Position numbers and translations under genes: made by a program
Shown here: piece after piece, positions 890-17,342 of the stretch
Layout of the letters: each line of letters starts with the position of its first letter
Numbering within the stretch: the first letter of the stretch is position 1
Assembly: GCA_965222075.1 (NCBI GenBank)
Contig: OZ244937.1
Span: forward strand, 864,001-928,000
DNA: 64,000 bases
Direction of reading: 5' to 3'
From: Candidatus Latescibacterota bacterium
GTDB lineage: Bacteria > Latescibacterota > UBA2968 > GCA-2709665
The notes under the pieces: model-generated
Database searches by the model: none
Told to the model about the DNA's origin: nothing
The model's input: only the letters and a program-made list of their open reading frames with translations

Positions 890-1822
890 ATGACCGACCC
901 GGACCAGCGCATTCGCGCCGCGGCTCTCGCTGCCATCGAACGGCTCTCCCGCCAGTACGGCGGCAGGGTTCACTGGGCCCACATCCAGCAAGGATTCGAC
1001 GTGGACGGCGAACGAGTACATTTCGCCACCCGCGCAAAGGGCATCTTCAAACCGAGGCAGATGAGCGCCGCGCTCAGTCTCAAGACGGTCATCCCCCGGC
1101 TTGGCCGGGAGGCCTGGTATCGCGATCAGGGTCTCGCGGGACAGAATCTGGACCAGGAGACGGGCCTCCTGCGTTACGACCTCGCGCGTGGCGGACCCGA
1201 CGAGCCATCCAATCGTTCTTTGCTCAAAGCGATGGAGCGCCGCGCACCACTGATCTACTTCGCCGGTTTCGCCCCCTCGGAGTATCAGCCAGTGTTTCCC
1301 GTCTGGGTCGAAGCGTTCCGCGAGAACGATGTGCTGCTTGCCACCACGGACAACCTGGCGTCCGGGGCAGGCCTCATCTCGCGTGAAGGCCCGGAACGGT
1401 CGTACTCATTTACGACGGTCCGATCGAGGAACCACCAGGCATGGTTCAGCATGCGCACCAAGGCCGCCTATGGATACCGGTGCGCGTTCAGCAGCCTTCC
1501 GGTGCGTGAACTTCTGGTGGGAGCCCATATCGTTCCGGATGCCGAGGGGGGGCCAGCCTCCGTGAAGAACGGGATCTGCATGTCCACGCTGCACCATGCA
1601 GCCTTCGACACGCACCTGATCGGGGTGGATCCCGACTTTCGGATTCACATCTCGCCACAGCTCCGAGAGCGGCAGGACGGCAACCTGCTGGCGACGCTCA
1701 AGGGCCTTGAGGGAACCGAGATCCGCCTGCCGTCCGACCAGGATGACTGGCCGAATCCCGCCTTTCTGGAGCGGCGGTTCGCACGGTTCGAAGCGGAGCC
1801 ACCAGAGAGGCATGACGCATGA
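890..1822 (+). CDS. HNH endonuclease, putative modification-dependent restriction enzyme
   Basis: C-terminal YGYRCAFS...LVGAHIVP...NGICMSTLHHAAFD HNH_2 motif; start could be 866. Confidence 0.8.
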   Translation: MTDPDQRIRAAALAAIERLSRQYGGRVHWAHIQQGFDVDGERVHFATRAKGIFKPRQMSAALSLKTVIPRLGREAWYRDQGLAGQNLDQETGLLRYDLARGGPDEPSNRSLLKAMERRAPLIYFAGFAPSEYQPVFPVWVEAFRENDVLLATTDNLASGAGLISREGPERSYSFTTVRSRNHQAWFSMRTKAAYGYRCAFSSLPVRELLVGAHIVPDAEGGPASVKNGICMSTLHHAAFDTHLIGVDPDFRIHISPQLRERQDGNLLATLKGLEGTEIRLPSDQDDWPNPAFLERRFARFEAEPPERHDA

Positions 1823-4800
1823 TGACCAGAACAACGACCCGACTGACGACTGCGGTTGAGAACTACCTCACCGATCTGCAACGAGTCCGCGCTTCCGGTG
1901 GAGGAACCGGAGAGCGGTCGAGCTATGGGCCGCTGGCCAATCTGTTGAACACCATCGGCGGGGTGCTCAAGCCCAGGGTGTTCTGTGTCGGCGAGTTGGC
2001 CGATCAGGGGGCGGGGCATCCCGACTTCGGCCTCTATGCGGCGCGGCAGGTGCAGAAGGGCAAACCGCGCGCGGGGCAGGTGCCCGAAGGCGGCGTGGTC
2101 GAGGTGAAGGCCCCGGGTGATGACGCCTGGCTGACGGCGGTGGGCGCTCAGGTGAGCCGCTATTGGGACCGCTATGGCCTCGTTCTGGTGACCAATACGC
2201 GCGACTTCGTGCTGGTGGGGGAGGACGCGGATGGCCGCCCGGTGAAGCTGGAGACGTTCCGGCTGGCCGCAGACGCGGCGGAGTTCGAGCGCCAGTTGGA
2301 GACACCGCACGCTTTTGCCCGCGAGGTCGGCGCGGGGTTGGGAGAGTATCTCTGCCGGGCGCTGTCGCATCGGGCGCGGCTGGCCGAACCCAGGGATCTG
2401 GCCTGGCTGCTCGCCTCTTATGCCCGCGACGGGCTGGCGCGGGTCGAGGCCGCGGGCGATGCGCCGTCGTTGAAGGCGGTGCGGTCGGCGCTGGAAGAGG
2501 CGCTCGGCGCTCGTTTTGAGGGGGATAAGGGCGCGCGGTTTTTCCGTTCGACGCTGGTGCAGACGCTATTCTACGGCGTGTTTTCCGCCTGGGTGCTGTG
2601 GGCGCGGCAAACACCGCCGCCCAGGAAGGCGTTTAATTGGTACGAATCGGTTTGGCATCTACGTGCGCCCGTTATGCAAGCGCTGTTCCAACAACTATCG
2701 CAGCCTGACCGCCTGCTATCGCTCGATCTCGTCGAGGTGCTGGACTGGACGGAGGCGGCGCTCGACCGGGTGGATCGCGACGCCTTCTTTGACCGCTTCA
2801 ATGAGGGCGAAGCCGTGCCCTATTTCTACGAGCCGTTTCTTGAGGCCTTCGATCCCGATCTGCGCAAGCAAATGGGCGTCTGGTACACGCCGGTCGAGGT
2901 GGTGCGCTACATGGTCGCCCGCGTGGACAAGGCGCTCAAGGACGATCTTGGCATTGCCGACGGGCTGGCCGCGGAAAATGTCTATGTGCTCGATCCGTGT
3001 TGCGGTACCGGGGCCTATCTGGCGGAGGTGCTGCGTCGCATTGCCGCCAATCTCCAGGGCCGGGGCCTCGGTGCGCTCACCGGCGCACGGGTCAAGCAGG
3101 CGGCGACCGAGCGCGTATTCGGCTTTGAGATCATGCCTGCGCCCTTCGTCGTCGCCCATCTGCAGGTCGGGTTGACCATGCAGGAACTCGACGCGGCCCT
3201 GAAAGATGACGAGACCGAGCGTGCCGGCATCTTTCTCACCAATGCGCTGACCGACTGGGAGGGGACGGGCGAGGGAACGCAGGTGGTTGCCTTTCCTGAA
3301 CTGAAAGAGGAACGCGACCGGGCAGGGCGGGTGAAGCGGGACACGCCGATCCTGGTGATCCTGGGCAATCCACCCTATAACGGCTTCGCTGGCATGGCTG
3401 TGGACGAGGAGCGCGAGCTGTCGCAAGCCTACCGCACGACAAAGCGCGTGCGCCGACCCGGGGGACAGGGGCTGAACGATCTCTACGTCCGCTTTTTCCG
3501 CATGGCGGAACGGCGCATTGCGAAGACGGGCCAGGGCGTGGTCTGCTTCATTTCCAACTATTCATGGCTTGACGGGCTGTCCTTCACGGGGATGCGGGAG
3601 CGCTATCTTGAAGTGTTCGACGCGGTCCGCATTGACTGCCTGAACGGCGACAAGTACAAGACCGGCAAGGTGGCGCCGGACGGTTCGCCGGACCCGAGTA
3701 TCTTCTCGACCGAAGGCGATCCGGTCGGCATTCAAGTTGGGACGGCGATTGCGACGCTGGTGCGCAAGGCTGATCACGCGCCAACCAGAGAGGTCGGCTT
3801 TCGGCATCTGTGGGGACAGGCCAAGCGCGATGAACTGACGGCGACGGCGGAGGTGGAGCCGGGCGCGCTCTACGATCGCATCGAGCCAGTGTTACCACTT
3901 GGCCTGCCGTTCGTGCGGACGGCCGTGAGCAAGGATTGGTTCGACTGGCCGGCGCTACCCGATCTGTTCCCAGTCTCGTTTCCGGGCGTGAAGACCAGCC
4001 GAGATAGGTTTCTTGTCGATACCGACCCCGACCGTCTCAAAGCGCGTATCGGCGATTACTTCGACAAGAGCCTGAGCCATGGAGAAGTCGCGCAGCGCTG
4101 GCCTGCCGCTATGAAGAACCTGCACGGATTCAATGGCCAAGTAGTGCGCGATGAGCGATTAGCAAATGAACTACCTGCTGGCAAGGCAGGCGGCCCGGGA
4201 AAGGCTGGTTTCATTCGATACGACTACCGCCCTTTCGATACGAGATGGCTCTATTGGGACCCAGACCGCGGTTTGCTCGACGCGCCGCGCGTCGCCTACA
4301 GACCACACGTGTTCGAGGAGAATGTGTGGATAGAAGCGCGCGAACGGGAAGCTAAGGAAGATTTCTCGCGAGGAACCTTAGTTCGTCACCTTGCCGATAA
4401 TTTCGGCAATGGACTTTCGAGTTTCTTCCCCGCCTACCTCCGCTACGATGATAAAGAAACCAGAACAACGCAACGCAGATCCAACTTGACAATCGAGGCC
4501 GGAAACTATCTCAGATATCTTGGCGCGAACGTGGAGGACTTGTTCTACCATGTCCTTTCCGTGCTTCACGATCCCGCTTACCGCGAGGCCAACGCCGGGG
4601 CGCTCCGCATGGAATGGCCGCGTATCCCGCTGCCGGGCTGGCCCGATGGTAAAGCCGAAGGTGCGGCGGATGATCTTGCCCAATCGGCGGCGTGGGGGCG
4701 CGAACTGGCCCGGCTGCTTGATCCCGAAGCACCGGTGCCGGGCGTTACCCAGGGCGCGCTGCGCCCGGAGACCGCCGCCATCGCCGTGCCCTCAACAGTC

Positions 4801-5196
4801 GATAAGCACAACATGTCCGGTGATGATTTTGCGCTGACAGCAGGGTGGGGTCATTACGGATCGGGCGACGCGGTGATGCCGGGCCAGGGCCGCATCGTCG
4901 AGCGCGAGTACACGGCGGATGAACGCGGCGCGCTGGGAGCGGCGATACCCACGCTGGGCGCCACCACGTTTGACATATACCTGAATGAACGTGCCTTCTG
5001 GCGCAACGTCCCCGCCGCGATCTGGGGCTACAAGCTCGGCGGCTATCAGGTGCTCAAGAAATGGCTGTCCTACCGCGAACGGGATGTGCTCGGGCGGGCG
5101 CTGTTGCCGGAGGAAGTGCTGTACTTTTCGGAGATAGCGAGGAGGGTTGAGGGGGTGTTGATGGTAACCGCTTTCAATTCTGCGTTAAGATATTGA
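1819..5196 (+). CDS. single-chain type IIG/ISP-like restriction-modification enzyme (nuclease + N6-adenine MTase + specificity domain)
   Basis: N-terminal PDF...VEVK nuclease motif, GVWYTP, DPCCGTG (motif I), GNPPY (motif IV), C-terminal YRPFD...GGYQVLKKWLSYRE ISP-type specificity region. Confidence 0.88.
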   Translation: MMTRTTTRLTTAVENYLTDLQRVRASGGGTGERSSYGPLANLLNTIGGVLKPRVFCVGELADQGAGHPDFGLYAARQVQKGKPRAGQVPEGGVVEVKAPGDDAWLTAVGAQVSRYWDRYGLVLVTNTRDFVLVGEDADGRPVKLETFRLAADAAEFERQLETPHAFAREVGAGLGEYLCRALSHRARLAEPRDLAWLLASYARDGLARVEAAGDAPSLKAVRSALEEALGARFEGDKGARFFRSTLVQTLFYGVFSAWVLWARQTPPPRKAFNWYESVWHLRAPVMQALFQQLSQPDRLLSLDLVEVLDWTEAALDRVDRDAFFDRFNEGEAVPYFYEPFLEAFDPDLRKQMGVWYTPVEVVRYMVARVDKALKDDLGIADGLAAENVYVLDPCCGTGAYLAEVLRRIAANLQGRGLGALTGARVKQAATERVFGFEIMPAPFVVAHLQVGLTMQELDAALKDDETERAGIFLTNALTDWEGTGEGTQVVAFPELKEERDRAGRVKRDTPILVILGNPPYNGFAGMAVDEERELSQAYRTTKRVRRPGGQGLNDLYVRFFRMAERRIAKTGQGVVCFISNYSWLDGLSFTGMRERYLEVFDAVRIDCLNGDKYKTGKVAPDGSPDPSIFSTEGDPVGIQVGTAIATLVRKADHAPTREVGFRHLWGQAKRDELTATAEVEPGALYDRIEPVLPLGLPFVRTAVSKDWFDWPALPDLFPVSFPGVKTSRDRFLVDTDPDRLKARIGDYFDKSLSHGEVAQRWPAAMKNLHGFNGQVVRDERLANELPAGKAGGPGKAGFIRYDYRPFDTRWLYWDPDRGLLDAPRVAYRPHVFEENVWIEAREREAKEDFSRGTLVRHLADNFGNGLSSFFPAYLRYDDKETRTTQRRSNLTIEAGNYLRYLGANVEDLFYHVLSVLHDPAYREANAGALRMEWPRIPLPGWPDGKAEGAADDLAQSAAWGRELARLLDPEAPVPGVTQGALRPETAAIAVPSTVDKHNMSGDDFALTAGWGHYGSGDAVMPGQGRIVEREYTADERGALGAAIPTLGATTFDIYLNERAFWRNVPAAIWGYKLGGYQVLKKWLSYRERDVLGRALLPEEVLYFSEIARRVEGVLMVTAFNSALRY

Positions 5197-5213
5197 CCCG
5201 GAAGGAGAGGATA

Positions 5214-6485
5214 ATGAGAGAAAAGAAAAACGAGCTTTTTGCGAACGGCGATTTGTCTGCAATTTTGCGTCAAAATCTACAAAGCCGTGTTGGCCCCGCT
5301 GTCGATAAAATACCGAAGGACCAATTGTTAGTCACGCCCGACACCGACATTGTCGATCATCTATTCGCTCAATTATCTATCGAGCCATTGGTTCTCTATG
5401 AAGACAGAATGGAAACGACAGAAGCGGAGACGCGAGTTGACGTATCTGGAGATCCGCAAAGGGGCCTATATAATCACAGTGGTCCATTTCACGTTTCAGG
5501 TTATGAAATTCGCATCGTCATTCCTTTTAGCGGAGAGGCGAAACTGTGGACTTTCACACCTAGCACCTGTCGCCCGGTCTGCCCGCATGGAAAGGTTCGG
5601 CCGCCACATGGTGATCAGGCGGGCAGCATTGAATTGACATTCAGTTGTCCGGTGGACACGTTGGATGAACAGCGCTTAAGGAACGAAATTCAAAAGGAAC
5701 TTGCTCTGATCCGGTTCTACGTGGAACATTCAACAAAGGACATCAATAAACACAACATGGAACTGCGTGAATCCATTGAACAACACGTAAAGGCACGAAA
5801 AAAGAAAATCTTGAAAACGGCTGGACTTGTAAGGCGCCTTGGACTGCCGATCAAGAGAAATCCTAATGCTCCGTCCATAGAACCGTTGAGACTGACGCGA
5901 AAGTTAGTGCGACCCCTACCACGAGCCCCTGATTCCGGCTTTAGACCGGAACCTGGTATAGACGAAGAGACGTATGAACATATTTTGAGTGTAATCCGCC
6001 ACGAGCTTAGAACATTCGAAACAACGCCGAATACGTACAAGCTTCTATGCGAGGAGCATCTGAGAAATATACTTCTCGCCCATCTTAATGGTCACTACGA
6101 GGGAGACGCAACTGGGGAGACATTTCGCAAAAACGGTAAAACAGATATCCGAATTGAAGACGGGAATCGTGCCGCGTTTGTTGCGGAGTGCAAGATATGG
6201 CGAGGTCCAAAAGAATTTCGCTCTGCCATATATCAGCTATTGAACTATCTGACTTGGCGCGATTGCAAAGCCTCACTCGTGATCTTCAACAAAGATGCCA
6301 GGAACTTCTCCAAGGTATTATCAAGCATTTCGAAAGAACTATGCGAACATAAACTTTCCAAAAGAGAATTCGTAGACCAGCAACGACCGGGCGAATGGCG
6401 TTATGTTTTTCGCTCGGCAGAAGATGAACTACGGGAAGTAATTGTCCATCTCTTTGCAGCGAATCTCTTCTCACTGGGAGATTGA
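5214..6485 (+). CDS. hypothetical protein with C-terminal PD-(D/E)XK nuclease domain
   Basis: EEHLRNILL...GETFRKNGKTDIRI...FVAECKIW...YQLLNYL motif; visibly more AT-rich than flanks. Confidence 0.7.
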   Translation: MREKKNELFANGDLSAILRQNLQSRVGPAVDKIPKDQLLVTPDTDIVDHLFAQLSIEPLVLYEDRMETTEAETRVDVSGDPQRGLYNHSGPFHVSGYEIRIVIPFSGEAKLWTFTPSTCRPVCPHGKVRPPHGDQAGSIELTFSCPVDTLDEQRLRNEIQKELALIRFYVEHSTKDINKHNMELRESIEQHVKARKKKILKTAGLVRRLGLPIKRNPNAPSIEPLRLTRKLVRPLPRAPDSGFRPEPGIDEETYEHILSVIRHELRTFETTPNTYKLLCEEHLRNILLAHLNGHYEGDATGETFRKNGKTDIRIEDGNRAAFVAECKIWRGPKEFRSAIYQLLNYLTWRDCKASLVIFNKDARNFSKVLSSISKELCEHKLSKREFVDQQRPGEWRYVFRSAEDELREVIVHLFAANLFSLGD

Positions 6486-6610
6486 CCTCACCCGGCAACC
6501 CGGCGGTGATTTCGCGATGACAGCGGGGTGGGGCCATTACGGATCGGGCGACGTGGTGAGGCCGTTCCAGGGCCGCATCGCCGAGCGCGAGTACACGGCG
6601 GACGAACGCG

Positions 6611-6643
6611 CCTGCCTGTGCCGTGCCCGGCACGGCAGACAGG
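6611..6643. repeat. 33-nt CCTGCCTG...CAGACAGG hairpin insertion
   Basis: absent from the homologous site near 4927. Confidence 0.85.
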
Positions 6644-6707
6644 CCGCGCTAGAGGCGGCGATACCTGTGCTGGACGCCAAGACGTTGGACGTTTATCTGA
6701 ACGACCG

Positions 6708-6726
6708 CCTGCCTGCTGCAGGCAGG
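6708..6726. repeat. 19-nt perfect hairpin insertion CCTGCCTGC-T-GCAGGCAGG
   Basis: absent from the homologous site near 4991. Confidence 0.85.
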
Positions 6727-6906
6727 TGCCTTCTGGCGCAACGTCCCCGCCGCGATTTGGGGCTACAAGCTCGGCGGCTATCAGATCCTCAAGAAATGGC
6801 TGTCCTACCGCGAACGTGATGTGCTCGGGCGGGCGCTCAAACCCGAGGAAGTGCTATATTTTGCGGAGATGGCGAGGAGAATTGGGGGGATATTGCTGAA
6901 CGTGAC

Positions 6907-8423
6907 CTATATGTAATGCCTAAACGGTAAGGGTGGCAGATCAGGGACAGGTGCAGCAGTAAGAATTTCGCCTACGGCATCAGCAAACTTAAGTGTAACA
7001 GGCTGTCCGTCTGCGAACTGGCAGGTGTTGAAGTTGATCTTGGTTAGGCCCATCACATCCGTCATAACCCTGAGCAGATCGGCATTGCCTCTGTGGATTT
7101 CGATTAGCAGAGGGTTGGGCACCTCCCAACCAGGATAAGTATCGAGTCGAGGTATAAACCCCTTGGTCCAAAGGTATCCTTTCCGTCTTGTTGACAGGTA
7201 TGCAGTGCCACGTAACACGGGCATTTTACTCGATCTATAGAGCTTTAGCTCACTGGTGTGGCGAATACGCACCCCGACTAGGTTGGTCTCGTTTGGGACA
7301 ACGGATTTGAAGCCTTCCCACTCGTCGTCGTTAAATCGCGTTTTGCCGTGGATAAAAAGCTCGGTGGGTGGCTTTCTGTGGAGTTCTCGGTATGCCTCCA
7401 CCACCAGGCTCATCAACTCAGAAGCCTTCTCTTTGCTAAGGTGAAATTCACGCGTATCCTTCGAGTACCAGGGGCCGACTGCACCTCGGAAAACAACGCC
7501 ATCGCCCGAGTCCAAAAACATTTGGGCACCGCAACAGGCGTTGCCGGCGGCCAGGTCGGTATCATCCATCTTGTAAACCAATCCTACATAGCAGACCCCT
7601 GGGCGGACCGACGCCAGTTTCCATGGTTTACCGCTGGCCTTGAAGAAGGCTGTCGTGCAGAGATTCCAAGCGACTGTGGCAGGATCTTCAGGTTCGCGAA
7701 TGAGGCGGCCGTCTTTAATGAATCGATGAGGTGTAAGTGTTGTCTCGCGCACAATCTGAAGGACAGCCCTCAGATCCAGGAGGCGGGCTTTCACCTGATG
7801 GTGGAAATTAAGCTCGTAGCGGTAAATTTCTGCGGCTTTTCGGTCTTCTGGGAAAAGTGAACCTTCGCGGAGAATCCTCCGTCCGCTCTTAAGATTGAGA
7901 AACTGTTTTCCTTTGATACGTTCTTCCTTGGGCACAGATGATTTGGGACGACCGTAGCGGTAAATGTCTTCCGGTATGACAACGAACCACATTGCAGGCG
8001 GTGCCTCGTCTTGGCGTAAATGCTTGCGTATAGGCTCTGCAAAAAGATTGGCAGTCTCGTATATTGTTCGTGTCGGTCCGAGATTCGGATCGAATCACGG
8101 ACGGCATCTTCCGGGACTGTTAGTTCAATAAGAGGCTCTTCTGGCCATCGAGCACCGAAAACTGCCTGGAAACCAGGCCAACCAGCGTGGTGCGGTTTAT
8201 TCGAATCCTTGGGTGGAATATAGCGTCGAATGCTTTCTGCCCATTCACGAAAGCAGTTCAGACCGTCCGGTGTCCCAATGATGCCGATACGCATTTCGGC
8301 AGGGTTGGCTCTGTCGTCCAAGGGGCCGAATAGAAAAAGTCCGTCCTTCGGATGCTCCAATGTTTGGCCGTAGCCGAAGCCCAATCGTGGTTCTTCGATG
8401 TGTTCGAGTAGAGAGTTTGTCAT
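6907..8423 (-). CDS. ago: short prokaryotic Argonaute (SPARTA clade), split by a 1-nt frameshift at 8066/8067
   Basis: N-part IEEPRLGFGYGQTLEHPKDGLFLFGP; C-part FHHQVKARLL...QIVRETTL...AWNL...GKPWKL...CYVGLVYK...ELFIHGKTRF...LRGT...GLTKINFN...PVTLKFADAVGEIL...FRHYI; adding one base joins the halves into 505 aa. Confidence 0.93.
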
Positions 8424-8434
8424 ACCGGCTGTCC

Positions 8435-9856
8435 TTATTGGTCGTCTTCGTCGTCAAATTGGTCTTCAGATTCCGTTTCATCCAGGTCGCTGTCGGGATC
8501 ACCTAGAGCGTCGGCCTCTATTTCGTCTTCTACATGGTCTTCTTCAGCTGTCGAAACTGGGGGATCGTTGGCAATGGACAGGGGGACATCAAAGCTCATC
8601 GGACGGGCGGCTATTGTCGCCGCGGCGTCACCGCCAAGGGATAGGGAGAATTCCTCTTTGCCGTTCGCTAGGGCAGCTACAAAAGCACGAAGCAGGTCGC
8701 GCCAACGATCATTCCACCAATTCTTGCAGAAACTCTTTCGTAGGCGATCAGCGCGAGATTTGCTATCAAGCGGCGTCTTGCCATCTTGGGTGAAGACGAC
8801 GTGAGTGTGCAATGTAAGGTGCTGTGGGTCTGCGATACTCACCTTGCCTGATACAGCAAAGTGCCAATAGACGCCTCTTGTCTCGCTTCGGCCAACCAAC
8901 CGGCGTCGTCGTTTCTTGCCGTTCTCATCTTGAAAGGTGGCAATATTTCCTTCGATTAGATCAAGGGGGATGAACCACGCGCTTCCGTGTGCAAATTCAT
9001 AAAGCAATAGGCCCTGACTCCGTGCGAATTGTTCCCATGCATGGCGGAGAAGTCCGGTTACCATGTTTCGAGCATCTCGCCACGAGATTTGCGGACCGTC
9101 GGTCTTATGACCATTGAGGAATCGTGCCAGTGGAACACGATAAGCGTGATCAAGTGGAATATCGGGAGTCTCCATTTGAAGCGTAGCTGCATCAGCAAAG
9201 CTGACGGCCAGCCGCAGATACGGGGCTGCGGGACTTTGGAATTCATTGAAAGCACGCCCCATGGCTTCCTGTGACGCATTGAAACGGGAGAAATAGATAT
9301 GAGACGGTAGGGAGCTAATTTGGAACCAGTTAGAGAATACTGACTCCGGTGTATCAGAGATGGAGGCGCTTTGCCGCAGCTTAAACTTCTGCCAAGCAGC
9401 CAAAGCTTCTCCAAAATCGCTAGTTGATTGCGGAACTTGGGTGTCTTTGAGAGTCGTCAGAAGCTTGCTGAGTCCGTCCGCCCAGTTGGGTGAGAAGTCG
9501 ATTGCGGTTAGACGGATCAACTGTTCGGGAAAGTCCGAAAACGGAAGGTCATCAAGGCGGACGGGTATGACGAATTGTTGTTTCTTGAGCTTGCGACCTG
9601 TGTTTACAGCAAGGGCAATTTCGTCAAGAACGCCGTCTTTCTGATAAGACGCGCAGGATAAGGCAACAATAACAACGGCGGCTTCTTCTTTAATCGTATC
9701 ACCAATATCTCGCCAGAATGTCTCGCCGCCGAGCAGATTGAGCACATCTGCCCATACTTCATAGCCAGCGGCGGCCAATCGAGTTCCTAACCAAGAAGCA
9801 AACTCGTTGTCCTCGGGATTGGCGTGACTGATGAAGACAAGGCGGCGTTCTTTCAT
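8435..9856 (-). CDS. TIR-APAZ effector (NADase) of a SPARTA system
   Basis: VFISHANPED...WL...GYEVWADV...GG.FW...GVLDEIA (putative catalytic E79); APAZ-like YWHFAVS...F..DG...R...CKNWWNDRWRD; long acidic C-tail; 11 nt upstream of ago. Confidence 0.93.
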   Translation of the reverse strand: MKERRLVFISHANPEDNEFASWLGTRLAAAGYEVWADVLNLLGGETFWRDIGDTIKEEAAVVIVALSCASYQKDGVLDEIALAVNTGRKLKKQQFVIPVRLDDLPFSDFPEQLIRLTAIDFSPNWADGLSKLLTTLKDTQVPQSTSDFGEALAAWQKFKLRQSASISDTPESVFSNWFQISSLPSHIYFSRFNASQEAMGRAFNEFQSPAAPYLRLAVSFADAATLQMETPDIPLDHAYRVPLARFLNGHKTDGPQISWRDARNMVTGLLRHAWEQFARSQGLLLYEFAHGSAWFIPLDLIEGNIATFQDENGKKRRRRLVGRSETRGVYWHFAVSGKVSIADPQHLTLHTHVVFTQDGKTPLDSKSRADRLRKSFCKNWWNDRWRDLLRAFVAALANGKEEFSLSLGGDAAATIAARPMSFDVPLSIANDPPVSTAEEDHVEDEIEADALGDPDSDLDETESEDQFDDEDDQ

Positions 9857-10075
9857 ACGGTGCTCCCTTTGAGCATTTTCTTGAGCGAGTCATACCTCTG
9901 CAAAGATGCTATGCCGAGGTCGGTCTCTGTTTAGTCGTCAATAAGTTGGTGGAATTCCGCGGTGTACGAAGCGAAGCTGCGTTGCGAAGAATCCCCGGTA
10001 CCTGATTTTCGGCATTATCGTACAGCCAAAAAAACCCAGATTTCTCTATTGGCTCAGAAAGTCGCATGGTAAATT

Positions 10076-11209
10076 TTACTCAACGAGTGCCTCTCGGTGT
10101 GCCTTGTGAGATTCCTCGTAAAAGGTCATTACGTCCAAATCTGGAATTTCTTCTGGCGCAAAGTACCACTTTGCAATGAGCTTGTCGCCATCCACGGCTC
10201 GCACTTTAAGGTCAAAGACCACCTCTTGGCCTGGGTATGTGAGCGCAAGTTTATCGCGCACTTGCTTCAGATCTGCCGGGAAAGCAGCACCATGTTTGGG
10301 CGCAGTGAGTTTGACATGCACGAAACGCGGCACCTGTTGATTGAAGGTCTTTAGCCCGTGTACAGGCGCGAGGACGTCGAGGTAGTGGCGAATCATTCTG
10401 TCTTTGTAATCGTTGACGACAATCTCGTCTACCAAAGCACGAACGAGCAGGCGCACGAAACGCATCAGATAGTCGATCTGTTTACTGCTCAAGGTCAGGC
10501 TGGTGCTCTGCTCGGAACTTGAGAGGGTCAATGTGTCTTTGGATACAGAGAAGCTGTTTTTATGTACAACCTCATGGCGATACGGCAGCAGTTGACAAAA
10601 GAGCGCCTTGGCATAGGTGTAAAGGTAAGGTTGGCTCTCGAAGAGAGGCGGAAGTTGGAGATGGGATTCTTTCTTCAGCAGCTTCACCTTCTCCTGAAAA
10701 TGCCAGGGGACCTTTGGGATGTTCCCCAATCTGCAATTCTCTTCAAAGATCCACTCGAAGATCATATCCAGCGCTTTGAAGGAAGCAATAAAAGTGAGGG
10801 GCATCATGGCATTCATGAGCGCTGGATCATGGGAAAGGCAATCTTCAAGGTTCATCTGTAAGTTGCCGGGCTCAACACCGCTCGTGATCCTGAGCACTGG
10901 GGAGGGGTCGTTGCCCTGGACCATATCATAACGCTTTTCCAGAAAATCGAGAAACCAGACCTCGTAATCCAGTTTGGTCCGAAGCGCTGTATTTTGGGCG
11001 TCAGCCATTTCCTTAGCTTCCAGTTTTGATCTGGTCTCTTCAAAACGTTTTACGACCTCTGGCGCGTAAAGGCGTTCGCCACAACGGAGACAAACTTCCG
11101 CTTGAATTTTCACGATCTCAGTGTGATTGCCACCTCGTAAAACCTTCTCGAGTTCCCTTTCAACAATCTCGCCACCACACACCGGACATTTGTCAAACGA
11201 TACCATCAC
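10076..11209 (-). CDS. YgiT/MqsA-type zinc finger fused to a ~310-aa HEPN-like domain
   Basis: CPVCGG...VCLRCGERLY N-terminus; downstream helical region with FQEK and YRHEVVH (Rx4H). Confidence 0.65.
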   Translation of the reverse strand: MMVSFDKCPVCGGEIVERELEKVLRGGNHTEIVKIQAEVCLRCGERLYAPEVVKRFEETRSKLEAKEMADAQNTALRTKLDYEVWFLDFLEKRYDMVQGNDPSPVLRITSGVEPGNLQMNLEDCLSHDPALMNAMMPLTFIASFKALDMIFEWIFEENCRLGNIPKVPWHFQEKVKLLKKESHLQLPPLFESQPYLYTYAKALFCQLLPYRHEVVHKNSFSVSKDTLTLSSSEQSTSLTLSSKQIDYLMRFVRLLVRALVDEIVVNDYKDRMIRHYLDVLAPVHGLKTFNQQVPRFVHVKLTAPKHGAAFPADLKQVRDKLALTYPGQEVVFDLKVRAVDGDKLIAKWYFAPEEIPDLDVMTFYEESHKAHREALVE

Positions 11210-11520
11210 TATGTCCTCCTCTCACGCCAATTGATCCAACGTGTTGGATCTGGGCGATAAACGGTAATCAAGATTGCCTGTTGATTCTTCTCATTGTAGG
11301 CCCAAACGCTGTGGATTGGCTCGCCATCTACATTTGTTCCATATATCAGGCAACTTGGGTATGGTTGATCTCTTGGATAATCTTCGATAATTTCGCCATT
11401 GCATAAGGAGTAGAGTATTTCTTCAAAATCCAGTCGATCATCCTGGGCTTCTTCATCTGCATGATTGGTGATGTGGTAATTTTGAGACTCTATAGCTCGG
11501 ATGATGTTTCGGATATCCAT
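11209..11520 (-). CDS. DUF4258 family protein (RelE-like putative toxin)
   Basis: ITNHADEE...GEIIEDYP...PSCLIYG...PIHSVW...ITVYRPDP..W; stop codon overlaps the start of the zinc-finger gene. Confidence 0.85.
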   Translation of the reverse strand: MDIRNIIRAIESQNYHITNHADEEAQDDRLDFEEILYSLCNGEIIEDYPRDQPYPSCLIYGTNVDGEPIHSVWAYNEKNQQAILITVYRPDPTRWINWRERRT

Positions 11521-11592
11521 CCATGTGTCTCCATAAGTATTGAAGGCGCTCTCCAGGCACGCGGCAATGTGTCGTCCAGGCCAGGCGGTGCC

Positions 11593-12447
11593 TCAGAAGT
11601 ACCACGCCAGGCTCAACAGCAGGCTGACAGCGGCGGCGTTTACACCCGCCGGGACTCTGACGACTACGTCGTCGAACAGTGTGATCCAGCGTTCAGTGCC
11701 ATACCGGGTGTAACGCGTTTCAGCGCGAAGCACGAGGTGTTCTCCGAGCATCTTGTCCATGCCGATGCCGGCTGTCCAGGCCAGAAATTTCTGGTCGTGG
11801 CTGTCTGTTCCTGAAGTAAAGTCGGGAGTACCGTCGGCGGATGAACACGGAACCGGATCCATGCAGCCGTTGAAGCGAGTTGTGAACCGCACCTCAATGC
11901 GGCGGACGCCTGCGAGTGCGTAGAGGCTTGCGTCCCATGACCGCAGCGCGCCCGGGTTGCCGCCCAGTTTGACTGTGAAGCCGTAGCTTCTGTCTTTTTC
12001 AAACGACCAGGGGTCTGGCCAGCTTTCCCCAAGTTGATTGCGCCCCGTTGACGTCCCCATCCCTTCAAGCTGTCCCTCCACCGTGCCGCCGTGAAATGCG
12101 ATATCAACCTCGCCGCCCAGGTAAAGCCCGCTCTCAGAGAGGGGCAGGCGATAGCCGGCGCGGAGACCGATCCCATACACCGATGTGTTGGCGGAATCCT
12201 CGTCCTGAAACACCCTGCCGCGTCGTGGCTCGGGCACCCGGGTGTCCGGGGCGGTGTTGTCAACGATTTTCTGGAAGGAGGCATCGAGGTATTCCACCGG
12301 GACCGCAATGCCGATATAGAAGCCCCGGCCTTCAGCGAATGCCGCGCCTGTCCGGGCTAAGGTGCCCGGTACGGTCAGGAGTATTGCCACCGTGACAGCG
12401 CCCAACGGGTTGTGTTTCCAGCGTATGGGTTCAGTTGCCCTGTTCAT
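11593..12447 (-). CDS. outer-membrane beta-barrel protein
   Basis: signal-like N-terminus, GFYIG, alternating beta strands, C-terminal LAWYF; GGAGAG RBS before ATG 12447. Confidence 0.7.
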   Translation of the reverse strand: MNRATEPIRWKHNPLGAVTVAILLTVPGTLARTGAAFAEGRGFYIGIAVPVEYLDASFQKIVDNTAPDTRVPEPRRGRVFQDEDSANTSVYGIGLRAGYRLPLSESGLYLGGEVDIAFHGGTVEGQLEGMGTSTGRNQLGESWPDPWSFEKDRSYGFTVKLGGNPGALRSWDASLYALAGVRRIEVRFTTRFNGCMDPVPCSSADGTPDFTSGTDSHDQKFLAWTAGIGMDKMLGEHLVLRAETRYTRYGTERWITLFDDVVVRVPAGVNAAAVSLLLSLAWYF

Positions 12448-14101: not shown

Positions 14102-14401
14102 TCAGACCGTGTGCACCCGAACTTCTTGATCCAGTCTGTCTGCTAAGGTTTCCCGGGTCGTTTCAAGATCATACCGGATTTGTAGATTCATCCAGAATTG
14201 CGCTTCCATCCCAAAAAAGCGTCCCAATCGTAAGGCCGTATCTGCCGTGATGCCCCGCTTTCCGTGTACAATTTCATTGATGCGACGTGGCGGCACACAG
14301 ATTGCCTGAGCCAAATGATATTGACTCATCTGCATAGGCTTCAGAAAATCCTCTAACAGGATCTCACCCGGATGGATTGGCGGAAAATCACGCTTGGTCA
14401 T
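14102..14401 (-). CDS. higA: HigA antitoxin
   Basis: PIHPGEILLEDFL...RINEIVHGKRGITADTALRLGRFFG..AQFWMNLQ. Confidence 0.95.
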   Translation of the reverse strand: MTKRDFPPIHPGEILLEDFLKPMQMSQYHLAQAICVPPRRINEIVHGKRGITADTALRLGRFFGMEAQFWMNLQIRYDLETTRETLADRLDQEVRVHTV

Positions 14402-14410
14402 TGTCTCTCC

Positions 14411-14692
14411 TCAGTGGTAATCAACAATCTCGACGTCAAAGGCGTTATCGTCGCGCCACACAAAGCACACACGCCACTGATCGTTCACACGAATGCTATG
14501 CTGCCCCTGTCGATCATGGGTCAACGCTTCGAGCCGGTTGCCAGGCGGTACACGCAGAGTATCAAGGACCGTGGCGGCGTTGAGTTGCTCAAGCTTGCGT
14601 GCAGCTACTCGTTGAATATTCTGCGGCAATTTGAGGGAAAATTGGCCGCGAAAAATTTTCTCGGCTTCCTTGTCCTTAAAGGATTTGATCAT
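14411..14692 (-). CDS. higB: HigB toxin (RelE family)
   Basis: MIKSFKDKE...LRVPPGNRLEAL..DRQGQHSIRVNDQWRVCF.W...VEIVDYH. Confidence 0.95.
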   Translation of the reverse strand: MIKSFKDKEAEKIFRGQFSLKLPQNIQRVAARKLEQLNAATVLDTLRVPPGNRLEALTHDRQGQHSIRVNDQWRVCFVWRDDNAFDVEIVDYH

Positions 14693-14698
14693 GTACCA

Positions 14699-14737
14699 AA
14701 CATAACGATTCCCGTTAATAACGTCAAGCGTTATTAA
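14699..14737 (-). promoter_or_regulatory. higBA promoter (TTGACG-17-TATGTT) with an overlapping operator palindrome
   Basis: perfect inverted repeat TTAATAACG-N5-CGTTATTAA at 14715-14737 covering the -35 box. Confidence 0.75.
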
Positions 14738-15058: not shown

Positions 15059-15117
15059 TCCGGGAGAATTTTTGGGAATTATGAGATTTGAAGCAAAAGG
15101 CGGGAGAATATCGAGGT

Positions 15118-15675
15118 ATGGGTAATTTCGCAGGTCACAGTGTTCACCTGGAAACAGCACGCCTGAAGCTGCGGCCGTTTGAGGAGGAGGATTTTGATCT
15201 GGCGGTTCCTTTTTACAGCGATCCCGAATTTCTCAATGCAATGGAGGGGGCACCGCCTGACGAACCCGTGACACGTGAGTATCTCAAACGCGCAGGCAAG
15301 GCAATGGCGGAACAGGGATTCCTGTTTGCAGTCGTGGAAAAGGTAAGCGGACGGACCATCGGTGAGGTCTGTTTGCAGTGGATGAATCTGGAACGCGCAA
15401 AAGTTGCGGGTGAGAAGGTGATGCGCTTACCTGTTGGGATCTGGGATAAGTCGTTGTGGGGCAAGGGCTATGGAAAAGAGGTAGCGCGATGTCTGATGGC
15501 GTACGCGTTTGAGGAATTGGGCGTTAATCGGTTCTGCCCGGTGGATGTGTCTGCGGATAATGCACGTTCAATGGCGTTGTGGCAGTCGCTTGGCTTGACT
15601 GTGTCGAGAGAAGTGGACGGGGGAAAGGTGCTGGATTTCGAGATCACGCGATCAGATTATGAGCGGGCGAGGTAA
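15118..15675 (+). CDS. GNAT N-acetyltransferase (RimJ/RimL type)
   Basis: LETARLKLRPF, LWGKGYGKE, YAFEELG, NARS. Confidence 0.88.
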   Translation: MGNFAGHSVHLETARLKLRPFEEEDFDLAVPFYSDPEFLNAMEGAPPDEPVTREYLKRAGKAMAEQGFLFAVVEKVSGRTIGEVCLQWMNLERAKVAGEKVMRLPVGIWDKSLWGKGYGKEVARCLMAYAFEELGVNRFCPVDVSADNARSMALWQSLGLTVSREVDGGKVLDFEITRSDYERAR

Positions 15676-15731: not shown

Positions 15732-16261
15732 ATGGACAAGCTGACAGTTCTGGTAGGGAAGCAAAGGGACGGCTACGTATTCAGGCTCAAGCCATCAAGT
15801 AAGTAGTGATGCAATAGTTTTTGTAAAAAACGGATAGTACTGGCCCTATGCTGAAGATTATTACATCTATAGCACAGTATTTACAAAGAGTTAAGGCGAT
15901 TTTTCGTAGGGAATTCTACTCCTGTAATCCAGTGAGAGAGTTCACAATTACTTCTGCTTGACTACTTAAGAGAGAGTTAGAGCAGGAGGGAGATTCCCGG
16001 GATACCGTATCAAGTGTTTTTATCTCCTATGACACAAAGCACGATTTCGAGCAAATCCAGGGACGGATTTGGGATCACGTGATCACATTACTTACTGGCA
16101 GGTCTTTCGAGAATTTGAATCAATCTGGCGGATTTGCCGTTGTAGACCCGGTTACGAACAAGACACTGTACGATTCGGTTGGGCAAAAGGAAGTGGCAAG
16201 GAGGCCGAGGCATGAGCGTCAACTACCAATTGTTGTTGGAGAAGGCGGCGCGGCTTTATGA
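15732..16261 (+). pseudogene. hypothetical ~120-aa gene interrupted by a MITE
   Basis: GGAGGA RBS + ATG; removing 15802-15968 restores MDKLTVLV...KPSSKRELEQ...HVITLLTG... in one frame. Confidence 0.75.
15802..15966. mobile_element. 165-bp AT-rich MITE with imperfect terminal inverted repeats and a TA target duplication (IS630/Tc1-mariner-like)
   Basis: left TA|AGTAGTGATGCAATAGTTTTTGTAA; reverse complement of right end TA|AGTAGTCAAGCAGAAGTAATTGTGA. Confidence 0.75.
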
Positions 16262-17342
16262 AAGATACGAGGCCGGACGCCGGGACCCCTTCAACGTCTT
16301 CTCGGTTCTGCGCACCGAACACGATGAGGTGAATCTTCACTCCCGGTTTCTCGCGGCGCTGCTCGACTACCGGCAGCCGTCCGATGGACACCGGGAAAAC
16401 CTGGCGGATTTCCTGTGCACAGTTGGTATACGCGACCTCAAGCATGAAGATGCAACAGTCGGACGGGAGATCGACAATGTCGATATCCTGATTCGCGACT
16501 GCTCTTCCGCGGTGGTCATCGAGAACAAGATCTGGGCCGGAGATCAACCCAAACAACTGGAGAGATATGCCAAACAACAGAAGAGGGAAGGCTATGAAAA
16601 ACCGCATTTGCTGTACCTGACACTGGACGGCCACGACCCCTCCGAAGACAGCGTGGGGGATCTCAATCTCGAATGTATTTCCCTCAAATGTATTTCCTAC
16701 AAGGACGATCTTTCCCCGTGGTTGAAAAATTGTCAGCAACGCGCATACGATGAACCCGAGTTGCGGGAGTCGGTTGCCCAATACCTGCGCTTGATTGCAA
16801 AGCTGACAGGTACGGACTTTAGTGAGGCCTATATGAGTGCTTTGAAGGAACTTTGCCTGCAAGACAATAACCTCGTTCTTGTCCATGACCTGAACAAGGC
16901 TATGGTCGAAGCAAGGGTTTGGTTATTGCACCAGTTGTGGCAAGAGATCGAGTGCGAGCTGAAGAAAATTCCGGATCTTCCTAACAAGAAGAACAGTGAC
17001 AGAGGGGGCTTCAAAGAGAATATCGAACAGTTCGTCAGAGGGCAGAAAAATTACAAATGGCGTGGCATACGCTATTCGTTTAAACCTTGTTTCACACTCG
17101 AAGTTCAGGTTGGAGACTTTATTCGCATTGGCGTCTCATGCACGAAAGAAAAGAATAAAGACGAGTACAACAAACTCCAGGAAGCACTCGAGAAAGCACT
17201 CGGGAGAGGCAAGAGTAGTGAGTGGTGGGTTTGGTTTAAAGATGACCCGTGTCCGAATCTGAAGCACCCGACCCGGGAGGACCTTGAGCTGCTGGCGAAC
17301 GATGAATCAAGGCCGCGGAAGTGGCGTCTGGTCCGTAGGTAA
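16212..17342 (+). CDS. PD-(D/E)XK nuclease family protein (PDDEXK_4-like)
   Basis: FNVFSVL...EVNLHSRFLAALL...VDILI...VIENKIWAGDQPKQLERY...LYLTLDG; extreme C-terminus may be frameshifted. Confidence 0.85.
   Translation: MSVNYQLLLEKAARLYERYEAGRRDPFNVFSVLRTEHDEVNLHSRFLAALLDYRQPSDGHRENLADFLCTVGIRDLKHEDATVGREIDNVDILIRDCSSAVVIENKIWAGDQPKQLERYAKQQKREGYEKPHLLYLTLDGHDPSEDSVGDLNLECISLKCISYKDDLSPWLKNCQQRAYDEPELRESVAQYLRLIAKLTGTDFSEAYMSALKELCLQDNNLVLVHDLNKAMVEARVWLLHQLWQEIECELKKIPDLPNKKNSDRGGFKENIEQFVRGQKNYKWRGIRYSFKPCFTLEVQVGDFIRIGVSCTKEKNKDEYNKLQEALEKALGRGKSSEWWVWFKDDPCPNLKHPTREDLELLANDESRPRKWRLVRR

Follow-up and report, generated by a model that had tools for sequence, protein, structure and literature searches.

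A DUF4258 gene overlapping a zinc finger-HEPN-like fusion gene: a candidate toxin-antitoxin or abortive-infection cassette beside, but apart from, a SPARTA system

Two overlapping genes in a 64,000-nucleotide stretch of a Candidatus Latescibacterota genome (contig OZ244937.1 of assembly GCA_965222075.1, positions 864,001 to 928,000; referred to as the window) encode a DUF4258 protein, predicted to be a toxin of the BECR RNase fold, and a fusion protein in which a YgiT/MqsA-type zinc finger is followed by a HEPN-like helical domain and an α/β domain. On balance, we read this pair as an autonomous, mobile toxin-antitoxin or abortive-infection cassette that carries two RNase-type domains and is independent of the SPARTA system (a TIR-APAZ gene and a short pAgo gene) next to it. 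The in silico basis of this reading consists of the domain identities, the recurrence of the pair, the phylogeny of the fusion protein, the boundaries of the cassette, the predicted interface between toxin and finger, and the pattern of gene decay. Coordinates are those of the window unless they are preceded by a label; L with a number denotes a compared locus and G with a number a compared genome. All relevant genes of the cassette and of SPARTA are on the minus strand (Table 1).

Results

Architecture of the two genes

The TAG stop codon of the DUF4258 gene and the GTG start codon of the fusion gene have one base in common (11209), which bears out the overlap reported in a preliminary description of the window; an ATG directly follows the GTG. 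This layout of the junction suggests that translation of the two genes may be coupled. Also in agreement with that description, the fusion frame runs on past the finger to 377 residues and contains Met68 (codon at 11008) and the sequences LDMIFEW (147-153), FQEK (171-174) and YRHEVVH (210-216). We rejected Met68 as an internal start: the methionine is not conserved among the fusions, and the preceding AAGGA is just 1-2 nt off. A consensus scan of 9700-11800 called no promoter-like sites, although the host may use other promoter types, and two terminator-like matches, both within the fusion gene and none in the spacer towards SPARTA. No inverted repeats or operator-like repeats were found at the cassette.

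The DUF4258 protein matched PF14076 with an E-value of 2.4e-26 (92.3 bits; cut-off 25), its residues 17-89 covering profile positions 1-71 of 71, and had no match among PDB sequences. Four residues, H20, H70, Y88 and R89, are invariant in all 12 fusion-linked copies. Passages of Gerdes 2025 (PMC11980606) and of a bioRxiv preprint (10.64898/2026.08.28.747851) assign the DUF4258 family to the BECR RNases; the preprint places it in the colicin-like BECR branch, in which the pre-alpha helix bears a catalytic histidine and the last strand carries basic residues. The preliminary description had spoken of DUF4258-YgiT pairs as predicted toxin-antitoxin modules, which matches the canonical pairs of DUF4258 and a short zinc-finger protein in passages of PMC11980606. 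DUF4258-MqsA fusions, in which the toxin is fused to the antitoxin, are listed there as well.

Residues 8-51 of the fusion protein matched the TIGR03831 YgiT_finger model (E 1.1e-7, 32 bits; cut-off 20.2), and the cysteines C8, C11, C40 and C43 of its CxxC...CxxC pattern are present in all aligned finger-bearing proteins. In Foldseek the N-terminal domain of MqsA was the only PDB match of the whole fusion model (3gn5_B, E 4.0e-3, probability 1.00; also 3ga8 and 3hi2), and VIA matched the finger to 3gn5_A with a Z score of 7.3 (rmsd 2.7, 67 residues). Models of full-length MqsA remained below threshold (PF15731, 25.1 bits, cut-off 30; TIGR03830, 31.3 bits, cut-off 61.8) and aligned over profile positions 1-78 only. 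The C-terminal helix-turn-helix (HTH) of MqsA is absent from the fusion protein, and HEPN-like helices are found in its place.

The HEPN-like domain

An AlphaFold2 model of the fusion protein, computed from a 77-row alignment (mean pLDDT 92.2, pTM 0.83), consists of a beta zinc finger (14-40), a long helix (50-97), a helical core and an alpha/beta domain (267-377). Helices 75-97, 136-160, 194-217 and 242-259 make up the core, and residues 220-241 form beta hairpins. In the VIA search, over residues 68-262 of the model, the seven best rows besides the MqsA match of the finger were all HEPN proteins, with Z scores of 7.0-7.6 that lie within the range (below 8) in which a common helical arrangement can account for a match. 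These were the HepT toxin 7ae2_A (Z 7.6, rmsd 4.4, 122 residues), HI0074 (1jog_A, 7.4), SO_3166 (5yep_B, 7.3), 1ylm_B, 8xdj_A and 2hsb_A (7.2 each) and Csm6 (6tug_A, 7.0); RnlA, LsoA, the sacsin HEPN domain, 1wol and 1ufb were found in lower rows.

With Z scores below 8 the fold call alone is not conclusive, and the conserved R-x4-H motif adds weight to it. Across the 77 sequences R211 never varies and H216 is conserved in at least 90% (consensus RNEIVH); in 53 stand-alone relatives of the C-terminal part neither residue varies. The consensus has a polar residue after the arginine, as is typical of the HEPN motif. In the model the motif is located at the end of the third core helix, the position at which passages of the ApeA preprint put the HEPN active site. 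Sub-threshold Pfam HEPN matches at the motif stretch were seen in five of 22 stand-alone relatives (RiboL-PSP in three, Cthe2314 and HepT; E 0.006-0.07). The 53 stand-alone relatives, together with the variant with an alternative N-terminus described below, gave nothing above threshold in PADLOC, Pfam or NCBIfam, and PDB sequence searches with the fusion protein and with the family profile returned chance-level rows only. As judged from model and alignment, the domain at about residues 72-262 appears HEPN-like in fold and motif, yet it belongs to no curated HEPN family.

The C-terminal domain

Modelled alone with AlphaFold2, the C-terminal 116 residues reached a pLDDT of 94.0. VIA matched them to MepB (4lqe_A, Z 5.7, rmsd 2.6, 70 residues), PvuII (5.1), I-Ssp6803I (4.4), NhoI (4.3), Hjc and RecU, and the best Foldseek E-value, shared among the SPARDA nuclease subunit, I-Ssp6803I and Hjc, was a weak 0.06. 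The fold matches are thus weak but one-sided, pointing to proteins of the restriction-endonuclease fold. The PD-(D/E)xK catalytic residues are not conserved: the window protein has D333-L-K335 where the family consensus is FxLxV or FNLxV. Because D333-x-K335 is not kept in the family, we read the domain as non-catalytic, and we infer a role in nucleic-acid binding or sensing.

The fusion family and its origin

A word-indexed search with the fusion protein yielded 125 homologues at E<=0.001 (120 of them listed), most of which are 365-412 aa long and 52-82% identical over the C-terminal part. With an intact DUF4258 gene directly upstream in 13 compared loci (see below), the fusion recurs in other genomes together with its partner, and the one-off chance fusion that the preliminary description had reckoned with is ruled out by the number of homologues. 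An exhaustive search of 50%-identity representatives gave 498 proteins at E<=0.001, a count that includes finger-only matches. Among the best 150 of these 498, a large share are proteins of ~300-340 aa that align end to end with query residues ~72-375 at 25-37% identity, and others are proteins of 60-140 aa that cover query residues 2-80 only. These two groups of matches identify the C-terminal 300 residues as a stand-alone protein and the first ~70 as a stand-alone YgiT antitoxin; it is near residue 70 that free YgiT proteins diverge and the stand-alone proteins begin. The HEPN-like family occurs in Bacteria and Archaea and is widespread and unannotated, being represented in none of Pfam, NCBIfam and PADLOC.

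In a phylogeny of 85 C-terminal regions (FastTree only, midpoint root, several long branches), 20 of 20 zinc-finger fusions formed one clade with a support of 100, nested in the stand-alone family. Such a topology, with the fusions as one derived clade, would fit the earlier idea of a captured effector. Adjoining the fusion clade in the tree are two others, one a small clade of stand-alone proteins, the other made up of three proteins whose N-terminal segment of ~65 aa is different.

In these three proteins (L025:2155-3651, L027:5611-7107, L028:5899-7014) the N-terminal ~65 aa are unrecognised and are not the finger, and in two of the three loci a gene for a 128-aa protein lies 4 nt upstream. 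Neither the 128-aa gene nor the alternative N-terminus had a library match, and an Atlas search with the 128-aa protein led to unnamed clusters only. This sister clade may represent a second, independent capture of an adaptor and a partner.

The stand-alone HEPN-like genes were solitary in the loci viewed (L080, L032 and plasmids). In L080 the gene is located between glutamyl-tRNA synthetase-like and dehydrogenase-like genes, and L032 has a broken copy in the same place (these neighbours were named by inspection of their N-terminal sequences). Plasmid-borne stand-alone copies, annotated 'hypothetical protein', were found next to insertion sequences in Burkholderia glumae and Salinigranum marinum. 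The family is patchily distributed: 31 genomes among the 168 of the phylum have it, and it did not turn up in the sole other genome of the same genus (94% complete).

The genome of the window also contains a canonical short pair (G000:C1 about 1473566-1474125; L128:1453-2012). Its DUF4258 protein (105 aa) is 78% identical to that of the window, with a cysteine in place of the otherwise invariant R89, and the overlapping gene that follows encodes a free YgiT protein of 81 aa, 70% identical to the finger (residues 2-72). An annotated DUF4258 and YgiT pair was found beside parA on an Acaryochloris plasmid.

Pairing, decay and the predicted complex

We compared 33 loci from species-representative genomes, 25 of which are of the zinc-finger type and come from genomes other than that of the window. 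The fusion gene is intact in 21 of the 25 and broken in four (L012, L015, L017, L029). An intact DUF4258 gene lies directly upstream in 13 loci, and in every one of them the fusion gene is intact too; since a contig end truncates L014, both genes are intact in 13 of 20 assessable loci. In the other seven the fusion gene is intact and DUF4258 is degraded or absent, with a stop in L019, partial matches in L005, L023 and L024, and none in L001, L010 and L021. No intact DUF4258 gene is found next to any of the four broken fusion genes. This asymmetry is expected if DUF4258 is a toxin and the fusion protein its antidote, the fusion being tolerated alone; the counts stem from related, non-independent genomes, and no P value is attached to them.

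Prediction of the complex between the whole fusion protein and DUF4258 gave an ipSAE of 0.62 (runs 0.62, 0.71 and 0.61), the best control reaching 0.01; in the benchmark, 116 of 157 solved complexes and 2 of 215 mismatched pairs attained the ipSAE mark. The runs had at least 80% of their contacts in common, and the pLDDT of the partner was at least 86. The predicted interface involves residues 4-60 of the fusion protein, together with residues 362, 364 and 370, and residues 13-33, 52-54 and 72-86 of DUF4258, around H20/H70. The likeness to the solved MqsR-MqsA complex may help this prediction. The models thus support binding of DUF4258 by the finger over a conserved face.

These data bear on two other ways of dividing the roles. 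One reverses them, taking the HEPN half for the toxin and DUF4258 for its inhibitor or regulator; HEPN toxins of this kind are known from HEPN-MNT and RnlA/LsoA systems, members of which appear in the list of fold matches. We regard a reversal as very unlikely, given that fusion genes are intact without DUF4258 in seven of the 20 assessable loci, that the stand-alone family has no conserved partner, and that the predicted DUF4258 contacts are on the finger and not at the R-x4-H region. The other holds that the HEPN-like gene has an unrelated function and that its fusion to an antitoxin merely bars the host from losing it, the two halves having no crosstalk. The junction at about residue 70, which unites two complete proteins, and the concentration of almost all predicted toxin contacts in residues 4-60 would be in keeping with such a linkage. 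A truncation after the finger, however, would keep the antitoxin and lose the cargo, which would therefore be only weakly protected. In addition, the sister lineage has another N-terminal segment on the same chassis and, in two of three loci, another upstream gene, which suggests selection for coupling to a partner, and the C-terminal residues 362, 364 and 370 are part of the predicted interface. We consider a linkage of this selfish kind distinctly improbable.

Relation to SPARTA

The TIR-APAZ gene lies 219 nt downstream of the fusion gene on the same strand (8435-9856), as first described, and the cassette had been proposed to be an accessory of this SPARTA, that is, a second effector or an RNA-processing step co-transcribed with TIR-APAZ and pAgo. 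Apart from the common strand and the short gap, in which no terminator-like site was called, this proposal can draw on L011, where order and orientation are the same as in the window, and on one public-run contig that spans 9156-10130. The distribution of the two systems argues against it. Among the 25 other zinc-finger-type loci SPARTA follows the pair in L011 only, with a Phd/PIN pair in between and a spacer of 1171 nt, so that the linkage of the fusion to short pAgo comes down to the window and this one locus. Close TIR-APAZ orthologues (79-85% identical) occur in 7 of the 168 genomes of the phylum, and in none of the seven is the fusion adjacent: four are without the HEPN-like family, and in the other three it is 674 kb (G140) or 243 kb (G129) distant or is found on a different contig (G122).

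The boundaries of DNA homology lead to the same result. In blastn comparisons the homology of the pair to other loci covers exactly 10074-11534. Against 73 loci, homology of the cassette ends at 10074-10103 and that of SPARTA at 9847-9901, its other end being at about 6930 (6500 in L011); the spacer (9862-10073) has no DNA match among the 73 loci and is thus unique to the window. Contigs of other strains in public runs diverge from the window at 9806/9837, 10080 and 11534. A 52-aa open reading frame (ORF) at 9909-10067 was rejected as a gene: it has a single weak ApeA_NTD1 match (E 0.074), and its DNA is without a match at other loci.

Moreover, the pAgo gene of the window has lost one nucleotide between 8067 and 8066, as seen in an alignment with the intact L011 copy, and is frameshifted, whereas the gene is in one frame in 8 of 8 other, orthologous loci. 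Contigs from two studies match the window without a gap across this site (X1 7809-8729, X2 7809-8196; one of the two runs may be the window's own source sample). Given this frameshift, the SPARTA system of this genome is probably inactive. The accessory role is largely refuted by the distribution, and we see scarcely any probability left for it; from the comparison of loci, the best explanation for the position of the pair beside SPARTA is that both reside in the same variable island.

Table 1. Features of the cassette and of its SPARTA neighbour (window coordinates)
Feature	Coordinates	Strand	Assignment or basis
DUF4258 gene, 103 aa	11209-11520	minus	PF14076; predicted BECR-fold RNase toxin
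Fusion gene, 377 aa	10076-11209	minus	YgiT/MqsA-type finger + HEPN-like + alpha/beta domain
Gene junction	11204-11219	minus	GGAGGA 11219-11214, TAG 11211-11209, GTG 11209-11207, ATG 11206-11204
Finger, fusion residues 1-67 (C8, C11, C40, C43)	11009-11209	minus	TIGR03831; antitoxin-like part
HEPN-like helical domain with inserted beta hairpins, fusion residues ~72-262	10424-10996	minus	AlphaFold2 model, VIA fold matches
R-x4-H codons, R211-H-E-V-V-H216	10562-10579	minus	Family conservation
Alpha/beta C-terminal domain, fusion residues 263-377	10079-10423	minus	Weak restriction-endonuclease-like fold; without conserved catalytic motif
Spacer, 219 nt, outside the module	9857-10075	minus	Homology to no other locus
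TIR-APAZ gene of SPARTA, neighbour outside the module	8435-9856	minus	PADLOC Aga_TIR-PNTD1-PNTD2, E 1.6e-146
Short pAgo gene, neighbour outside the module, frameshifted	6907-8423	minus	Frames 7791-8423 + 6907-7992; PADLOC pAgo_I

Genomic context of the cassette

The region 5400-11400 is a low-GC island (48-56% as opposed to 60-68% in the flanks), which together with the patchy distribution of the family points to a horizontal origin of the cassette. In the window, L011 and L016 the cassette is located at one edge of an island of variable cargo whose end is formed by a type ISP-like restriction gene; in L016 Phd/PIN, a Schlafen AlbA_2 protein and the type ISP-like gene come after the pair. The same Phd/YefM and PIN toxin-antitoxin pair (96 + 143 aa) lies downstream of the cassette at L011:7512-8230 and L016:8258-8976. 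Besides SPARTA and the cassette, the island of the window contains a 430-aa gene of no assigned family (5193-6485, plus strand). The segment 6500-6898 shares 72-81% identity with the 3' ends of the type ISP-like genes flanking the L011 and L016 islands and is possibly the remnant of a second type ISP-like copy.

Defence-type genes near the island comprise HNH, type ISP-like restriction, HigBA and PDDEXK_4 genes. The HNH endonuclease gene (866-1822) overlaps the start of the gene for an 1125-aa type ISP-like methyltransferase/specificity protein (1819-5196; N6_Mtase, Eco57I, Type_ISP_C). The HigB-like toxin (14411-14737) and its HTH_3 antitoxin (14102-14401) are encoded on the minus strand, and a GNAT gene (15088-15675) and the PDDEXK_4 nuclease gene (16179-17342) were also found.

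At the other loci, the context was analysed by a Pfam scan of 71 flanking ORFs, the nearest of at least 120 aa, at 22 of the 25 zinc-finger-type loci (L007, L014 and L015 left out). A DUF5131 gene (E about 1e-96) is present downstream of the cassette in seven loci (L003, L004, L005, L019, L020, L023 and L024; at about 7300-8250 in each, 8158-9837 in L019), directly so in six, and a GMT-like winged HTH comes next in two. Either one genus shares this gene order or DUF5131 is a further linked module. Defence-like flanking genes include REase-ARP and T5orf172 (L001), Uma2 (L020), HEPN_LA2681 (L012) and DUF3782/PDDEXK_10 (L018, L021), and housekeeping ones include ABC-transporter permeases on both sides (L006, L008), peptidases, molybdenum oxidoreductases and an isoleucyl-tRNA synthetase. 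In L006 and L008 (L006:2952-10460, L008:3478-9603) the cassette is found among the permease genes of what seems to be a single operon for an ABC sugar transporter, an arrangement suggesting that it inserted into a housekeeping operon. From these mixed neighbours we conclude that the cassette inserts in many places.

The housekeeping neighbours at many loci could also be those of an addiction module without a role in defence. The finger would then neutralise DUF4258 as in type II systems, the HEPN half would cleave the operon or toxin mRNA in a type V-like manner and so replace HTH autoregulation, and the cassette would mainly stabilise itself and the bordering island. A toxin-antitoxin system whose toxin-binding antitoxin is itself an RNase is on record in passages of PMC10714953. 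The loss of the MqsA HTH, with PF15731 and TIGR03830 aligning at positions 1-78 only, the canonical short pair beside ParA on a plasmid and the place of the cassette at the edge of a variable island in the window, L011 and L016 are further points in its favour. Yet the HEPN half reproduces in full a protein that is found alone, with no toxin to regulate, and the fusion gene has stayed intact after loss of DUF4258 in seven loci. The solitary relatives and the persistence of the fusion without DUF4258 indicate that the HEPN half has a function of its own, and we consider a pure addiction module rather unlikely.

Discussion

Our preferred reading, a mobile toxin-antitoxin or abortive-infection cassette with two RNase-type domains, implies the following course of events, for which we infer the RNase activities, the trigger, the release of the toxin and the defence phenotype. 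DUF4258 would be the toxin, a small RNase of the BECR fold. The finger, formed by the first ~67 residues of the fusion protein, would bind it over the conserved, histidine-bearing face and keep it inactive. In place of the HTH of MqsA, the antitoxin carries a whole copy of an otherwise solitary protein composed of the HEPN-like and the restriction-endonuclease-like domain. By analogy with ApeA and DARNA, the HEPN half may be an auto-inhibited RNase effector with a sensing C-terminal domain of its own. If infection or stress disturbed this half by activation, sequestration or degradation, DUF4258 would presumably be freed as well, and the cell would be struck by two RNases, following the logic of abortive infection or addiction.

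A more specific and speculative version, which we think unlikely, is that of a 'booby-trapped' effector. The HEPN sensor-RNase would be tied to the antidote in such a manner that its degradation, sequestration or remodelling by a phage, or its own activation, would free DUF4258. The fusion would thereby act as a two-warhead switch for abortive infection, and the HEPN-restriction-endonuclease-like protein as a reusable chassis to which toxins are tethered, as the sister lineage might illustrate.

Several findings weigh against our preferred reading. The mixed neighbours of the cassette neither prove nor exclude a role in defence, and no relatives were found in 50,697 phage records. The decay pattern was drawn from related genomes, as noted above. 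Neither a DNA-binding domain nor an operator-like repeat was seen that could account for autoregulation of the cassette. The window pair and the canonical pair of the same genome could cross-neutralise. DUF4258 is listed as experimentally undescribed in passages of Gerdes 2025 (PMC11980606). As to the HEPN call, the VIA scores are of the height at which helical arrangement may suffice; residues 68-377 had no match in Pfam, NCBIfam or PADLOC; and an hhalign comparison with HepT-like proteins gave an alignment of just 16 columns, confined to the surroundings of the motif (P 0.018, probability 2.5%), the reference set being 21 HepT-like ORFs that were selected in 30 loci by their position and by an R-x(4-6)-H filter (nine loci dropped, a few ORFs maybe in the wrong frame). 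The preliminary description had called the C-terminal part HEPN-like; the conserved R-x4-H and the best VIA matches, HEPN toxins at Z 7.0-7.6, uphold this, but Foldseek, run with the whole fusion model against the PDB, returned no HEPN match.

Among known systems, the cassette resembles MqsR-MqsA in its overlapping genes, with the toxin gene first, followed by an antitoxin with an N-terminal four-cysteine toxin-binding finger that superposes on the MqsA N-terminal domain. It differs in that the toxin is DUF4258 rather than MqsR and that ~300 aa of HEPN-like and alpha/beta structure replace the HTH. Canonical pairs of DUF4258 and a short YgiT protein have the same two families in the same order, but their antitoxin measures ~81 aa and ends after the finger. 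In Aave_1720-Aave_1719 of Acidovorax citrulli (PMC10714953), another toxin-antitoxin pair, the antitoxin likewise has RNase activity and neutralises by two routes; a zinc finger-HEPN fusion is not described in passages from that source.

The HEPN half has parallels of its own. HEPN-MNT (HepT-MntA) systems provide the best fold matches of residues 68-262 and likewise have R-x4-H at the end of the third core helix, whereas the present domain has no MNT partner, is ~60 residues longer with hairpin insertions, is joined to an extra C-terminal domain and matches no Pfam HEPN family above threshold. According to passages of two preprints (10.64898/2026.01.26.701840, 10.64898/2026.02.22.705581), ApeA and DARNA are single-protein HEPN tRNases activated via non-catalytic domains that sense a nucleic-acid-derived signal. 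The stand-alone family is like them in joining a HEPN domain to non-catalytic domains and in being encoded by solitary genes, and a nearby cluster bears the automatic Atlas label 'Apea-like HEPN'. In ApeA, however, as far as these passages go, the HEPN domain is C-terminal, after N-terminal and Mid domains, and DARNA has a 300-aa helical C-terminal domain; PF18739 (HEPN_Apea) had no match in the genome at E<=10. EC042_2821/DUF3644 proteins also have a HEPN domain followed by a domain of the restriction-endonuclease fold and occasionally a fused zinc ribbon, as stated in passages of PMC3710099. Their C-terminal domain is ~180 aa long, compared with ~115 aa and weak fold scores here, no toxin-antitoxin-type partner is described for them in those passages, and PF12358 (DUF3644) had no match in the genome at E<=10.

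A fusion of a zinc-finger antitoxin to a HEPN domain is undescribed in titles and abstract openings on DUF4258 and on HEPN with MqsA, YgiT or BECR, though the supplements of PMC11980606 and of the preprints could list it. The word 'HEPN' is absent from the text passages of PMC11980606, a negative that does not extend to its supplementary tables. Passages of the 2013 HEPN census (Anantharaman et al., PMC3710099) report HEPN-restriction endonuclease and HEPN-zinc-ribbon fusions in other families, so that the combination of domains has precedents.

For SPARTA biology, the consequence is that the cassette should not be counted as a SPARTA accessory. The analysis also reveals a widespread, unannotated family of HEPN-like and restriction-endonuclease-like proteins, which could be a single-gene defence system. 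If our reading is true, two RNase-type domains would be wired into one switch, and the antitoxin domain would tether a small toxin to a larger sensor-effector.

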